Source: Izhakiella capsodis (GTDB lineage: Bacteria > Pseudomonadota > Gammaproteobacteria > Enterobacterales > Enterobacteriaceae). Taken from it: DNA of 24,000 bases. Positions 1,287 to 5,046 of this stretch are shown one piece after another (within the stretch, counting starts at the first letter, position 1; each line of letters starts with the position of its first letter). Position numbers and translations under genes: made by a program. Under the pieces are notes generated by a model, which saw only the letters and a program-made list of their open reading frames with translations, searched no databases and was not told the DNA's origin. Location: NCBI RefSeq assembly GCF_900115045.1, contig NZ_FOVC01000015.1:22163-46162 (forward strand), given 5' to 3'.

Positions 1287-1424
1287 TTCAGCACGCGGTA
1301 CATTTCATCACTGGCGGGTTGCAGCCATTCATCGGTTATATCGCCTGCGATTGTACGCCCGGAACGGTCACGAAAATCAACCAGATACGGGGGATCTTGT
1401 TTAAGTTAATCAGCATTCTAATAT

Positions 1425-1709
1425 TTGTCAGCTGTTATGCGCGACTACATTAAATATAGTATTTATTTAATCCAAAACCGCCCATCATCAATGATGATAA
1501 TATTGGAGATATTAAAAAAGAATAACGATACTTGTAGTACTCTGAAAAATAAATTATTAGCAAATCGAATAAACAGACTTGCGACGGGCATGCCCTTTAT
1601 TATGCTCACTGATGAGACCGTAAAGACAAACTTGCGCATAAAAGAATTGAGAGTAATGGTCTACTGTATTAATCAAATAATAAATAATTCAGAAAGAAGA
1701 TCGTCATAA
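1425..1709 (+). CDS. Hypothetical 94-aa protein; start uncertain (TTG 1425, ATG 1437 or ATG 1491)
   Basis: A 94-codon open frame in very AT-rich DNA, where stop codons should be frequent. It is convergent with the rSAM gene. No convincing Shine-Dalgarno sequence precedes any candidate start, and I recognise no family. Confidence 0.35.
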   Translation: MSAVMRDYIKYSIYLIQNRPSSMMIILEILKKNNDTCSTLKNKLLANRINRLATGMPFIMLTDETVKTNLRIKELRVMVYCINQIINNSERRSS

Positions 1710-1885
1710 TATTTAACCATGAATGAATTAAACCTTTTGGTTTATGTGAATTAAAATAAATAATTATTCTTAACTAAGCTGTCTTTCTGTAAAATTTTAT
1801 CACAATTACGCAAGTGGTGTAATGGCATAAGAATTTAGAGTATTTTTAACAGAGCACTTATTTGACTTCGAAATAGGTTTAAAAT

Positions 1886-2929
1886 TTAAATATCTTTTAC
1901 AGGTATTGAGTGGTGATCCTCCTGGTAATCATTGGTTATTCCTTTTGCTTTCCCAAAGAAACCAGCCATAAAGAGGGTCAGAATTTCTTTTTCGTTCTTC
2001 CTGGCATATTTGATTAATGCATTCTTAATTCTACTTTCTCTGTATATGTACTCACAATATTCGCATGGATGTACGAAATACTCTGGTACATCAATTGATC
2101 TATCTATTTTTTTGGCTTCATTAATGAGATACTCAGGGCCATATATATTTAGCATCATTTTCATTAGATCGTCATCAGCTGATTCAATCAAATTATGAAG
2201 TCTATTATTAGATAAACTACCCAAATGAATATCTTTTATTTTTTCTAATCTTATTCCACAGCATGGCACAAGTGAAAGTGACGGCGTGATAGCCAGAACA
2301 TTCATGATCGTCTGGCAACCTTGCATTATATTTTTTATTTTTACTTTATTTTTTTTGTTATCCTCTTTAACCCAAAAATTATTTATTAATTTCAATTTCC
2401 CTTTTTTCAAAGCTGATTTGATTAGTTCATCGTTTTTTATTCTTATTGAAACTTCGGATTTTTCTTCATCTACATGATTCTCGATGTTTATAACTACTGT
2501 CATACCCTCTTCTGTACAAAAGTGAGCAGCTCGAATTATGTTTTCTACAGGAACATATTTTGCATGAGAATGCCCTGTACTGAAATTGACTTCATTTAAT
2601 CCTGCTTTGCGAATCTCAGAGCAAACCTTGGATGTATAGATGTCATTTTTAGCCCAGTAACCATTAGTTACTACTCGCGTATTAAAATTATTTTTAGTAG
2701 CAAGAAAAATTAATTCTTTGAGTTTATTGCCTAGAGTAAAGCACTCTCCACCCGTAAAAACGATATTTTTTATTGATTTTATTTTCTTAGCGTCATTAAT
2801 TACTTCTATCATTTTATTATGAGGGATGTAGGTATTCTTTTGCGGTGTGCATTCAAAACAACAATCATCACAAGCTGCGGTACATCTGTCTGTTGTAATT
2901 AAAGCTAAAGTATGGGGAAATATTTTCAT
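1886..2929 (-). CDS. Radical SAM enzyme with a Cys-containing C-terminal (SPASM/twitch-like) region; putative peptide-modifying maturase
   Basis: C16-x3-C20-x2-C23 (TTDRCTAACDDCCFEC) lies at the extreme N-terminus. The FTGGECF and VVTNGYW motifs are typical of the SPASM-type subfamily. The C-terminal region carries GCQ...VPCCG and HPCEYCEY cysteines. A strong SD (ggggaagga) lies 7 nt upstream of ATG 2929. Confidence 0.85.
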   Translation of the reverse strand: MKIFPHTLALITTDRCTAACDDCCFECTPQKNTYIPHNKMIEVINDAKKIKSIKNIVFTGGECFTLGNKLKELIFLATKNNFNTRVVTNGYWAKNDIYTSKVCSEIRKAGLNEVNFSTGHSHAKYVPVENIIRAAHFCTEEGMTVVINIENHVDEEKSEVSIRIKNDELIKSALKKGKLKLINNFWVKEDNKKNKVKIKNIMQGCQTIMNVLAITPSLSLVPCCGIRLEKIKDIHLGSLSNNRLHNLIESADDDLMKMMLNIYGPEYLINEAKKIDRSIDVPEYFVHPCEYCEYIYRESRIKNALIKYARKNEKEILTLFMAGFFGKAKGITNDYQEDHHSIPVKDI

Positions 2930-2941
2930 AGTTTCATCCTT

Positions 2942-2961
2942 CCCCTCTAAGATTAGAGGGG
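2942..2961 (-). promoter_or_regulatory. Intercistronic stem-loop between the precursor-like gene and the rSAM gene
   Basis: cccctcta-agat-tagagggg is a perfect 8-bp stem. Its downstream arm on the transcribed strand abuts and shares 4 nt with the rSAM Shine-Dalgarno region. No U-tract follows. Confidence 0.4.
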
Positions 2962-2968
2962 AGTAAGT

Positions 2969-3448
2969 TTAGAAGACAAAAGCTGCTACAGCTACAAAAA
3001 CCTCCACTGCTACAGCCACATCAGTAACACCTGCAACGTTGGTTACTGCAACTGCATTAGCCACAGCCTCAGCATTCACGTCAACATTCGTATTTACCTG
3101 AGCTGAGCCAGTCAAAGCACTTTTGGATTTTGAAAGGTTCGCGTACAAAGTCATCAACTCTAAAGCCTGGGGATAATGCTTTTTGATATAATCAACATAA
3201 ATATCTGCTGATTCTTTTAGTTTAGAATTAGCTTCAGTTGTATCGCTATACTGTTTAACAATATTGGCAATCATCTTAGACATGGTGACAAAATTTTCAT
3301 CATTAACCAGATTTATCATCTGCTTAACATTTTCTGGAGTGCTGTTGTTTTCCTCTAATTGCTTTCTAATATTTATATCTGTGATTGCTGCGAAAAAAAC
3401 ATTAAACTGTTGTAAATCAGTGAGGCTTACTGTTATTTTAAAACTCAT
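2969..3448 (-). CDS. 159-aa precursor-like protein: hydrophilic helical N-terminal region of about 110 aa (Nif11-leader-like pattern) plus a Val/Ala/Asn-rich C-terminal 45 residues
   Basis: ATG 3448 is preceded by GGAGA with a 6-nt spacer. The C-terminus is SAQVNTNVDVNAEAVANAVAVTNVAGVTDVAVAVEVFVAVAAFVF. It lies 39 nt upstream of the rSAM gene on the same strand. The 185-aa TTG-extended version in the ORF track lacks an RBS. Confidence 0.7.
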   Translation of the reverse strand: MSFKITVSLTDLQQFNVFFAAITDINIRKQLEENNSTPENVKQMINLVNDENFVTMSKMIANIVKQYSDTTEANSKLKESADIYVDYIKKHYPQALELMTLYANLSKSKSALTGSAQVNTNVDVNAEAVANAVAVTNVAGVTDVAVAVEVFVAVAAFVF

Positions 3449-3609
3449 TTTACATCTCCAATTAAGAAATATTTTAAAAAGAAGAATAGTGCGTTTAATA
3501 ATGCGAAAATATATATAATAAAACAATTAACTTCTAAAAAAACCACACCAACATGAATTAAAAACTCTATCCAAGTTACGAAAAATAATGCAAGTAAGTA
3601 TTAAGTTAA

Positions 3610-4080
3610 CTAATTCTGATATTGCTCAGATATATACTTCTGTAAAAAACTTAGTTTTGCGTTATCCCTGATGATGGCAGCTCGTAGATCGAGAACATTT
3701 TGTCCAGCATTTTTACTGAGTTGGATGGTGGAATCATAGTCCATGCTGGAGGTGGTATGATTATGGGCTTGGGACATACCGGCGCATTTTCCTCTGATGT
3801 ACATCCTGCGAGAGCCAGAGATAAGCTGACGCCGAAGTAAATTATTATTTTTTTCGGCCACATATAAAGCCTTAGTTTTAGATTCATCCAAAATCATTAA
3901 TTGCTGTTGACGTTCATGTTCCTTAGCAAACGTAATCCTTTCTAAATTATACAATTTGGCTTTGTACGAGAGCATTGACTTATATTCATAATAAACACTC
4001 CTGTAATAAAACAAGGCTAACATTAAAGATAGAAATACAAAAGTAATGCTGAAATAAAAGATATTTATGTAAGGCTTCAT
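3610..4080 (-). CDS. Rz: Rz-type inner-membrane spanin (i-spanin)
   Basis: It has an N-terminal TM segment ([22 protein letters not shown]). The C-terminal half, ...[12 protein letters not shown]...[27 protein letters not shown], parallels lambda Rz ...AGRRRLHIKAVC...LEGTQKYINEQCR. ATG 4080 overlaps the endolysin stop (ATGA). Confidence 0.85.
3651..3863 (-). CDS. Rz1: Rz1-type outer-membrane lipoprotein spanin (o-spanin) embedded in the +1 frame of Rz
   Basis: [21 protein letters not shown] carries a lipobox (LAGC), followed by a Pro-rich mature part ([14 protein letters not shown]). The gene is entirely nested inside Rz, as in lambda and P21. An alternative start is ATG 3887. Confidence 0.75.
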   Translation of the reverse strand: MWPKKIIIYFGVSLSLALAGCTSEENAPVCPKPIIIPPPAWTMIPPSNSVKMLDKMFSIYELPSSGITQN

Positions 4081-4565
4081 TTTACCCCCATTAAACACAC
4101 TTCTCTTTCAATTCTTCTTCGATCAATGAGACCTTGCAGTACCTTGCCATCGGAATACACCCATCTGCTAAGCTCATTACAAGCAGCCCTTTCTCTTCCT
4201 TGATTAAGTCTTATCAAAAGCGTGGATTTATCGAAATTATCAATACCTACATTATATACAAAAGAATATAGTGCTCCTCGAGTAGTAATAGGAATTTTTA
4301 ACTTTATTTTGGCGCCTACCTGTTTTGCTACATTTCTAATATCTCTATGAAGAATATATTTACATTCATTCTTTGTATATGTTCTATTCATTATGACATC
4401 ACCGCCTGTATGCCCGTAGCAAACAGTATCTACACCAGAAACATCCAGATAAGGGTGATATCTTACCCCCTCCAGTCCATCACTACCTGAGATAAGAACT
4501 GAAGCAATGGCCATAGCACCACCCTTTACCGCAGCTAAAACTGCTTTCGTCAAAGCAATATTCAT
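4077..4565 (-). CDS. P21-type SAR (signal-anchor-release) endolysin, GH24 lysozyme
   Basis: [54 protein letters not shown]...[14 protein letters not shown]...[14 protein letters not shown] is close to my memory of P21 R. The E-x8-D-x5-T catalytic triad is present, as is a Gly/Ala-rich weakly hydrophobic N-terminal SAR segment. The ORF track starts it at GTG 4577. Confidence 0.9.
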
Positions 4566-4769
4566 TTTGAATCTCACTCATAGGCGATGTACAACTAGTC
4601 TTATAGAGTATTTTTAAATCAAAGTCATGACCTAATTAACATAGGGAACTCGTTCTTTTCACAAAATATAATAGCTATAAAAAAGTTTCAAAATACTATT
4701 TTTAATTATTTATAGCATTCATCTTTCCTTTTAAATTCTGGATTGACTCAACAAAACTAATTAATAAAA

Positions 4770-4809
4770 TTAACACTCCATATTAATAATATGGATGGCG
4801 ATGTGTTAA
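4770..4809. promoter_or_regulatory. Nested palindrome (candidate operator) in the ORF-free leader upstream of the lysis cassette
   Basis: tccatatta-a-taatatgga (4777-4795, perfect 9-bp arms) is flanked by ttaacac (4770-4776) and gtgttaa (4803-4809). Confidence 0.3.
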
Positions 4810-5046
4810 TGTTAATTAATCTAAGGCTTAAGCTACATTATGTTTTATCATTTTCATAGACGTTTAAATCTATTATTAAATGAGTAATTGATCGTTAGGA
4901 CAGATCAATTAAAAAAATAAACAAAACCACAACAAAAGAAATATTTATCAAGAGAATCATCTTAGCGTTATTGTTTGTTTATTATTGCATCTTATCTACA
5001 TAGTCCAACAATCAAACATTGCACTTTTATTTAAATTCCTTAGGTT

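Follow-up and report, generated by a model that had tools for sequence, protein, structure and literature searches.

The 24,000-nt stretch of Izhakiella capsodis DNA described here (the window; contig NZ_FOVC01000015.1, positions 22,163 to 46,162) contains, between positions 1396 and 5046, an AT-rich island in which a phage-type lysis cassette lies next to a gene pair for a modified peptide. The five genes of the island are read from the minus strand and comprise an endolysin of the signal-anchor-release (SAR) type, the spanins Rz and Rz1, a 159-residue precursor of the type known from peptides made on ribosomes and modified after translation (RiPPs), and a radical S-adenosylmethionine (radical SAM) enzyme. 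This list of parts had been given in an earlier note on the same DNA, together with the co-oriented array and the coordinates of all genes and gaps; profile searches bear out the former and the listing of open reading frames (ORFs) the latter. The G+C fraction of the island is 0.322, compared with 0.545 in the left flank and 0.522 in the rest of the window, which puts figures to a drop that had been judged by eye. In 500-nt segments it ranges between 0.28 and 0.37 from about 1400 to 5050 and between 0.50 and 0.59 on either side. No near-identical DNA of the island was detected in plasmids, E. coli genomes or phages. The encoded proteins match I. capsodis database entries exactly.

The radical SAM enzyme (1886-2929, minus strand, 347 residues) is of the EpeE/YydG peptide Calpha-epimerase type. 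It matches the model TIGR04078 over its full length at 7e-27 and Pfam Radical_SAM at 6e-8. As its TIGR04078 score of 94.7 bits lies below the curated equivalog cutoff of 300, it is described as an EpeE-type homologue and not as an equivalog. A profile of 43 family members matches the EpeE/YydG structures (PDB 8AI1-8AI6) over the full length at 4e-31, and the next PDB matches, at 1e-5, cover the generic radical SAM core only. The full-length TIGR04078 match and the match to the EpeE structures uphold the YydG-type epimerase family, which had been named among the candidates. The motif of the radical SAM cluster, C16-X3-C20-X2-C23, is invariant in the 43 members and aligns to C14/C18/C21 of YydG. 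Also invariant are C205, C223, C289 and C292, which align to the HCPG, CC and ICGVC motifs of the twitch-type auxiliary cluster, and C224, the putative hydrogen-atom donor, in a CC pair aligned to C222/C223 of EpeE. In EpeE itself, Cys223 is the hydrogen-atom donor that fixes the D configuration (PMC13012085). Other chemistries were considered and rejected: sactipeptide or ranthipeptide formation, as the precursor core has no cysteine; B12-dependent C-methylation, as the enzyme has no B12 domain; and a cyclopropylglycine synthase, which is a SPASM-type enzyme, the YydG model alone matching the window enzyme over its full length. Membership in a known defence system was also rejected, PADLOC having returned weak viperin-model matches to the generic radical SAM core only.

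The precursor gene (2969-3448, minus strand) lies upstream of the enzyme gene and encodes a leader of residues 1-117 (3448-3098) followed by a core of residues 118-159 (3097-2972). An AlphaFold2 model built on the family alignment shows leader residues 12-113 as entirely helical (predicted local distance difference test scores of 82-91), with an unreliable tail. The leader model gave no PDB match at E <= 0.001 in Foldseek, and the precursor no Pfam, NCBIfam (E <= 0.1) or PHROG family; the leader belongs to neither the NHLP nor the Nif11 type. The possibility that the 159-residue protein is a phage or holin-type protein, which the earlier note had raised against itself, is not borne out, no such family being matched.

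The core consists of 42 residues rich in Val, Ala and Asn (VNTNVDVNAEAVANAVAVTNVAGVTDVAVAVEVFVAVAAFVF). Residues N125, N131, N137, D143 and E149 form an exact i+6 series, and all nine polar residues of the core fall on one parity (binomial p = 0.004). Both features recur among 28 diverged precursor sequences that are 25-30% identical. Asn occupies core positions 8, 14 and 20 in 82%, 96% and 93% of them, 75% have a polar residue at position 26, and 22% have Glu at position 32. The autocorrelation of polar occupancy along the core is 0.63 at lag 6 and 0.32 at lag 12. Of the N, D, E, Q and H residues, 157 stand at even and 4 at odd positions, the four being in one outlier sequence; for Asn the counts are 101 and 1. 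The beta-helix of aeronamide has D-Asn25/31/37/43 on a single face (PMC9060474). From the single polar parity and the i+6 ladder, the modified core is predicted to adopt a D,L-alternating, membrane-spanning beta-helix and may act as a channel. The beta-6.3 helix of gramicidin and polytheonamide rises 0.8-0.9 Å per residue, at which the 42-residue core would span about 35 Å, or roughly one bilayer.

A pair of the same type is present on an independent, AT-rich metagenome contig of 3 kb (L001), which carries a CcdA-like ORF at its far end. Its nucleotide identity to the window is 90% over positions 1820-3588 only, that is, from 66 nt past the stop codon of the radical SAM gene to 22 nt from that of Rz. 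Between window and contig, dN/dS is 0.12 in the precursor gene and 0.09 in the enzyme gene, which indicates that both have been under purifying selection. The 39-nt gap between them contains a G+C-rich hairpin of 9 bp (2941-2962, minus strand; -19.3 kcal/mol, z = -3.2, reached in none of 200 shuffles), the stem of which is identical in L001. Its 3' arm overlaps the ribosome-binding site of the radical SAM gene (GGGGAAGGA) and no T-run follows, and it may lower translation of the enzyme or stabilize the precursor mRNA.

The pairing extends well beyond these two sequences. A hidden Markov model of the precursor detected a homologue directly upstream, in the same orientation, at all loci with a radical SAM enzyme at least about 35% identical to that of the window (L001-L016 and L019); relatives below about 35% identity have other genes upstream. 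Co-occurrence of the two homologues outside the window, which the earlier note had asked about, was thus found at 17 loci from several phyla, always in the same order, and the RiPP-type pair is real and conserved. A word-indexed search found the 159-residue protein in I. capsodis and one metagenome contig only. With phmmer, 1.84 billion cluster representatives yielded 32 precursor representatives, of which one (P0070, an 822-residue repeat protein) looks spurious. Relatives of the enzyme number 46 in the protein collection and 173 in contigs of one genome per species from GTDB, and belong to the Verrucomicrobiota, Eremiobacterota, Chloroflexota, Acidobacteriota, Bacteroidota, Gammaproteobacteria, Bacillota and Nitrososphaerales. 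A scan of JGI metagenomes for close relatives of the enzyme gave two distant matches only, at 32% identity. No description of a family combining an EpeE-type epimerase with a proteusin-like core was found in the searchable literature, Pfam, NCBIfam or PHROGs, and this multi-phylum family is apparently undescribed.

The surroundings of the pair were surveyed through 113 ORFs lying within 5 kb of it at 14 loci. Among the matches listed, which cover 25 of 48 families, the only recurrent Pfam neighbor is MTS, a HemK/PrmC-like methyltransferase (8 of the 113 ORFs), and no transporter, protease, lysozyme or holin family occurs near the pair. The methyltransferase, 367-371 residues long and with an NPPL motif, follows directly after the radical SAM gene in L005 (11059-12162), L007 (11089-12204) and L008 (6170-7285), and stands a few genes beyond the pair in L012 (13708-14859). 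It has no significant sequence match to the solved AerE chain, and by analogy it may N-methylate Asn or Gln amides, as a counterpart of PoyE/AerE from another protein family. In L007, from Thermogemmatispora, it is directly followed by an SdpI/YfhL-family protein (12249-12617), a family associated with immunity to the SdpC toxin, which would fit a toxic product. L003 adds an alpha/beta hydrolase or S9/S33 peptidase, and the window, L001 and L002 represent a minimal form of two genes. The earlier note had listed the lack of an exporter, a leader protease and an immunity gene as a peculiarity of the island. No such family is indeed present among the island ORFs scanned; the absence of an exporter, however, is nothing special, as the wider family has no recurrent transporter either. 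N-terminal twin-arginine extensions, placed before the conserved leader domain, are present in 6 of the 32 precursor representatives (P0068, P0074, P0076 and P0077 by motif search; P0063 and P0066 added by eye), which suggests export of the already modified precursor by the twin-arginine (Tat) pathway.

Relatives of the enzyme on viral contigs are distant (25-31% identity), with no family precursor upstream as judged by eye and no lysis-gene homologues. In seven of these contigs from IMG/VR (L088 and L090-L095), the radical SAM gene, 27-28% identical, lies about 400-600 nt from an upstream homologue of the P2-type late-control/tail gene D, in a cargo (moron) position at the edge of prophage-like contigs. 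In Calidithermus roseus (L022), the ORF (9327-9947) upstream of a 31%-identical radical SAM gene has an Asn-Ala repeat tail (…NANANLNANANANANYNANTN…), a further core with strict alternation but of another type.

The lysis cassette occupies positions 3610-4565. The endolysin (4077-4565, minus strand, 162 residues; Phage_lysozyme 1e-38) is a GH24 enzyme of the P21/434 type with a putative SAR domain and an intact catalytic triad, E32-D41-T47 (E-X8-D-X5-T). Aligned from residue 1 onward, it shows 60-61% identity both to phage 434's endolysin, which is annotated as SAR, and to the phage 29485 lysozyme. Its N-terminal domain is weakly hydrophobic and rich in Ala and Gly; residues 8-27 have a mean hydropathy of 1.76, against 1.99 in R434, and the putative SAR domain is interrupted by Lys14 where R21 has Gly14. 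The P21-type identity proposed earlier agrees with its nearest relatives in a collection of 5.8 billion proteins, which are lysozymes of the P21/434/BTP1 type from Salmonella, Citrobacter and E. coli prophages and share 60-62% of residues. The i-spanin Rz (3610-4080, minus strand, 156 residues; Pfam Phage_lysis 5e-13, PHROG 13 at 1.5e-30) has an N-terminal transmembrane segment, is 32% identical to Rz of Salmonella phage 29485, and overlaps the endolysin stop codon by ATGA. The o-spanin Rz1 (3651-3887, minus strand; Pfam Rz1 6e-10, PHROG 3198 at 2.7e-15) is embedded in Rz in the +1 frame; its lipobox is LAGC, with Thr at +2, and its mature part is rich in Pro.

Directly upstream of the endolysin gene, and overlapping its start, the phage records inspected show either a small membrane ORF or a class II pair of holin and antiholin. 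The corresponding region of the island (4566-5046, minus strand, 481 nt, 25% G+C) is interrupted by stop codons in each of the three minus-strand frames and contains no ORF above 24 residues. The absence of a holin, already reported in the earlier note, was confirmed with the ORF listing and in tblastn searches that used the phage 434 and 29485 holins as queries (best E = 0.96). Nor was a holin remnant detected in 4566-5046 by tblastn with these two holins and by three-frame translation. The best sigma-70-like sites of the region are at 4815-4780, and promoter-like sites are not above shuffles (14 found, 18.7 expected). SAR endolysins use Sec for export, remain tethered to the inner membrane in an inactive state, and leak slowly even without a holin. 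Because of this leakage, the cassette should, to judge from its sequence, still be competent for lysis if transcribed. Retention of the SAR form requires the proton motive force, and pinholins act solely by depolarization (PMC9239132).

The boundary between cassette and pair is at about 3588-3609, within the gap between Rz and the precursor (3449-3609, minus strand; 161 nt, 22% G+C). In L001, the sequence preceding the precursor is homologous to positions 3449-3588 of the gap. In that contig, the place of the lysis genes is taken by an ArgR-like gene (Arg_repressor_C, L001 583-912), the ORF of which is itself split over two frames and which may be the native regulator of the peptide genes. The window retains, at about 3529-3588, a decayed and indel-ridden remnant of the last ~60 nt of this ORF. 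From the remnant it follows that the ArgR-like neighbor is ancestral and the junction with Rz secondary. No homologue of the endolysin, Rz or Rz1 was found by tblastn within 10 kb of the radical SAM gene at 84 genomic or metagenomic loci, nor at 10 viral loci; for these three genes, the question of whether the pair stands beside lysis genes elsewhere is answered in the negative. A second occurrence of the whole island (L100, a Logan assembly) was rejected as independent evidence. It is 100% identical, goes back to sequencing of the same strain, and breaks inside the repeats of an insertion sequence (IS) described below, so the arrangement is unique to this I. capsodis strain. The fused system put forward in the earlier note is therefore without comparative support: it is present in one strain only, L001 lacks the lysis genes, and the junction is secondary. 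In the searchable literature, no paper was found that links a RiPP to a phage lysis cassette.

The island lies in an F-like (IncFII) plasmid carrying psiA, traG, traD, traI and repA. To its right, 78% of 18.9 kb matches Erwinia tracheiphila plasmids at 92% identity. Homology to the IncFII backbone ends at 1176 in the psiA region, where 520-1176 yields a broken ORF only, and restarts at 6564. Two IS3-family ends flank the island in direct orientation. The left one is a solo left end (1200-1286, plus strand) made up of the inverted repeat and the start of orfA, and is a direct repeat of 5375-5461 (87 nt, 97% identical, spacing 4175). The right one belongs to an element with broken orfA and orfB (5375-6560, plus strand) that has an rve domain and matches annotated IS3-family transposases. 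Between these ends and the island lie pieces of the F-plasmid leading region. On the left edge is a DNA methylase gene fragment of 113 bp (1284-1396), 88.5% identical to features annotated as 'DNA methylase' in more than 5000 plasmids. On the right a leading-region fragment (5047-5375) carries a plasmid-type hypothetical ORF of 62 residues (5235-5047, minus strand). The solo and broken IS3 elements and the leading-region fragments mark the island as cargo within a part of the leading region that is scrambled and bracketed by IS elements.

The reading preferred here, at a probability of about 0.6, is that the island combines, as a mosaic, two AT-rich modules that differ in ancestry, and is bracketed by IS3 in an IncFII-like leading region; the juxtaposition of lysis cassette and peptide pair is then most likely secondary and strain-specific. 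Module 1 (3610-4565) would be the endolysin-spanin part of a lambdoid cassette of the P21/434 type that has lost its pinholin and late promoter and kept its reading frames. If transcribed, it would bring about a slow, holin-independent lysis, which any depolarizing agent, possibly the peptide, would speed up. Module 2 (about 1820-3588) would be a self-contained RiPP unit of two genes. Its enzyme is proposed to bind the helical leader and to abstract Calpha hydrogens from several core residues of one parity, with Cys224 re-donating hydrogen, so that L-residues become D-residues. The hairpin over its ribosome-binding site would hold synthesis of the enzyme below that of the precursor. The leader would keep the peptide inactive until its removal by a protease, and the modified core would span the membrane as a beta-helix and dissipate the membrane potential. 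Polytheonamide and aeronamide are membrane-spanning beta-helices that dissipate potential in this way, and the shorter epipeptides also depolarize membranes.

Several observations weigh against this account. The two modules are co-oriented, lie 161 nt apart, and are similar in G+C and in G+C at third codon positions. The gap between them has no terminator-like fold (z = +0.46), and no sigma-70-like site was scored on its coding strand; in combination, these two results make co-transcription from upstream of the endolysin possible. A terminator-like match at 2993-2981 was discarded as it lies inside the precursor coding sequence. The function missing from the cassette, depolarization, is the predicted activity of the peptide, which is suggestive, and the peptide module has no exporter of its own. 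All three lysis frames, including the fragile embedded Rz1, are intact at 36-38% G+C, which also speaks against mere debris. For the peptide module, epimerization by the enzyme is predicted by homology, Asp210 of EpeE has no clear conserved counterpart in the window enzyme's family, and the window locus is without the methyltransferase that its relatives carry.

Two kinds of functional coupling between the modules compete with the mosaic, and even when taken together they are rather unlikely; obligate coupling is judged less likely than a coincidental or opportunistic adjacency. One kind concerns release. The peptide would be a transporter-less toxin, either a bacteriocin or one directed against insect or other eukaryotic cells, and the cassette would lyse a subpopulation to set it free. 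Lysis cassettes of the type 10 secretion system (T10SS) are found within toxin operons of insect-associated Enterobacterales, in which specialized cells lyse and free cytoplasmic toxins (PMC10847048). The plasmid context and the lack of an exporter, both at the locus and as a recurrent neighbor in the wider family, are in line with such a role. Release coupling is nevertheless improbable, as the arrangement is unique and its junction secondary. The T10SS has a holin and dedicated regulators, of which the island has none, and the island contains no immunity gene and no LexA-box-like site that would indicate a colicin-like SOS control. The twin-arginine signals of some precursors point to Tat export rather than to lysis in those family members where a route can be seen.

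The other kind is the trigger hypothesis of the earlier note. According to this, the epimerized peptide, coming from the cytoplasm, inserts into the inner membrane and abolishes the proton motive force in place of the lost pinholin, upon which the SAR endolysin is freed, the spanins fuse the membranes and the cell lyses. The known behavior of the parts is favorable: without the proton motive force SAR endolysins are not retained, and depolarization is all that pinholins do (PMC9239132), and epipeptides made by EpeE dissipate the membrane potential and act on the producer strain (PMC13012085). So are the parity and i+6 Asn ladder shared with channel-forming proteusins, the absence of a holin, the terminator-free gap between Rz and the precursor, and the orientation, closeness and similar composition of the genes. 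A peptide replacing the pinholin is thus biophysically plausible; as an account of this locus it is unsupported and hard to credit. It has a single occurrence, at a junction that the ArgR-like remnant and the lysis-free L001 mark as secondary, and no homologue of the window lysis genes lies near any of 94 relatives. The peptide genes are downstream of the cassette and not in the position of a holin, removal of the 117-residue leader is probably needed and no protease is encoded, and a holin-less SAR cassette can lyse without any trigger. Also doubtful is a broader version in which a ribosomal peptide does the work of a holin: its 42-residue tail, epimerized by an EpeE-type enzyme, would form a D,L beta-helical channel, depolarize the producer and free the SAR endolysin, and the lysis completed by the spanins would at the same time liberate the peptide as a toxin. 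If true, both a post-translationally modified 'RiPP holin' and a lysis cassette timed by an enzyme-matured peptide would be seen for the first time.

Just as hard to credit as the trigger hypothesis is the view that the island is silent debris, a foreign, AT-rich patchwork that is silenced by H-NS and neutral, with neither module expressed or functional. The solo IS3 end, the broken IS3 element, the 113-bp methylase fragment, the broken psiA ORFs and the decayed ArgR-like remnant would all suit it, as would promoter-like sites no commoner than in shuffles and a G+C content of 25-32%, a level usual for DNA under xenogeneic silencing in Enterobacterales. It accounts poorly for five frames, including the overlapping Rz and Rz1, that stay intact in stop-codon-rich DNA of 32% G+C, for catalytic residues kept in both enzymes, and for a dN/dS of about 0.1 in the pair, although this value reflects selection along both lineages relative to L001.

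Least probable by far is a tail-anchored, possibly holin-like membrane protein of 159 residues, with a Val/Ala segment forming a plain transmembrane helix and the substrate of the enzyme located elsewhere: a low-confidence helical tail in AlphaFold2, a folded leader domain of 100 residues that is unusual for a RiPP, and the Tat signals of some members, as in known tail-anchored Tat substrates, can be cited for it, but a polar parity of 157 to 4 and a conserved i+6 Asn ladder misfit an alpha-helix, in which residues at i+6 stand 240 degrees apart, the gene always adjoins an EpeE-type peptide epimerase in the same order, a methyltransferase recurs as neighbor, large structured leaders have a precedent in the NHLP proteusins, and no holin family is matched.

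The mosaic reading places the two modules among different known systems. Two lineages of radical SAM peptide epimerases are known, the PoyD type, which makes proteusins, and the EpeE/YydG type, which makes short epipeptides. With the epipeptide system (YydF/EpeX, YydG/EpeE, EpeP and EpeAB) the window pair shares its enzyme, EpeE being the closest solved and curated relative, with the radical SAM cluster, the twitch auxiliary cysteines and the CC pair in common, and with a product class that depolarizes membranes. It differs in having a precursor of 159 rather than about 49 residues, with an unrelated folded leader and a 42-residue Asn-ladder core, and, in the island ORFs scanned, neither an EpeP protease nor an EpeAB ABC transporter. 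The hosts also differ, since epipeptides are described as confined to Bacillota (PMC13012085) and the hosts of the window family are Gram-negative and otherwise diverse. Like the proteusins (polytheonamides, aeronamide), the family has a large structured leader and a long Val/Ala/Gly/Thr/Asn core with one-parity polar residues and Asn at i+6, and the methyltransferase beside the epimerase in window relatives parallels PoyA/PoyD/PoyE (AerA/AerD/AerE). Unlike them, its epimerase is of the EpeE lineage with an auxiliary cluster, which the proteusin epimerases (PoyD, OspD) lack (PMC13012085), its leader is neither NHLP nor Nif11, and the methyltransferase of the relatives is MTS/HemK-like and missing from the window locus.

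The lysis module resembles the cassettes of phages 21 and 434 in its endolysin (60% identical, including the putative SAR domain and the triad), its embedded Rz/Rz1 and the ATGA overlap. It differs from them in lacking a pinholin/antiholin gene, in being on a plasmid and not in a prophage, and in the 36-38% G+C of its genes; enteric phages have roughly 50% G+C. The combination of a SAR endolysin and a two-component spanin without a holin is shared with phage Mu, which has gp22, gp23/23.1 and, as releasin, gp25 of the DUF2730 family (PMC9239132). No DUF2730 or releasin was present in the island ORFs scanned against Pfam, and the window endolysin is of the P21 and not the Mu type. In the T10SS, in colicin lysis and in tailocins, as exemplified by YenLC of Yersinia entomophaga, a phage-derived cassette likewise stands beside an exporter-less toxin locus (PMC10847048). 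The T10SS, however, has a holin and a transcriptionally coupled regulator, the window cassette is holin-less with an adjacency that is not conserved, and as cargo it would have a small RiPP in place of a large protein toxin.

The precursor/epimerase pair is regarded as the more valuable result when compared with the lysis juxtaposition. In many phyla, an EpeE-type enzyme has as its partner a precursor that bears the core signature of channel-forming proteusins, and a methyltransferase is a frequent third gene; if the predicted chemistry is correct, this would amount to a second, convergent way of making beta-helical peptide channels. The minimal, plasmid-borne form of two genes in 1.8 kb is attractive for biochemistry and engineering. 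The holin-less SAR cassette beside it is a single juxtaposition that could show whether a depolarizing RiPP is able to time phage-type lysis.

The remaining parts of the island are short. The AT-rich trailer downstream of the radical SAM gene (1396-1885, 29% G+C) has no supported gene, and only its last 66 nt (1820-1885) are common to L001. Small ORFs at 1425-1709 (plus strand), 1639-1463 (minus strand, 58 residues) and 4960-4895 (minus strand, 21 residues, MILLINISFVVVLFIFLIDLS) are hydrophobic and rich in Phe, Ile and Asn. The two in the trailer, of 94 and 58 residues, have no Pfam match and no entry in the protein collection, and the two on the minus strand have no family, no database entry and no conservation in L001. 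Such ORFs are probably compositional noise, although the one at 4960-4895 or 1639-1463 may encode a tiny membrane peptide. Elsewhere in the window, a ParE-family toxin of 93 residues overlaps an upstream ORF of 83 residues, probably its antitoxin (6971-7493, minus strand); the locus adjoins the IS3 element and is an ordinary plasmid addiction module. Sites of the form CTGT-N8-ACAG with at most one mismatch number 17 in the whole window against 6.65 expected, a count reached in none of 100 shuffles, and none of the sites lies in the island. A second patch of low G+C (0.34-0.40) covers 12469-13272 and 13372-13839. It contains, directly 3' of a 936-residue traG-like gene and hence in a traS-like position, an ORF of 267 residues with multiple transmembrane segments, followed by a lytic-transglycosylase-like ORF, and looks like ordinary content of an F-type transfer region.

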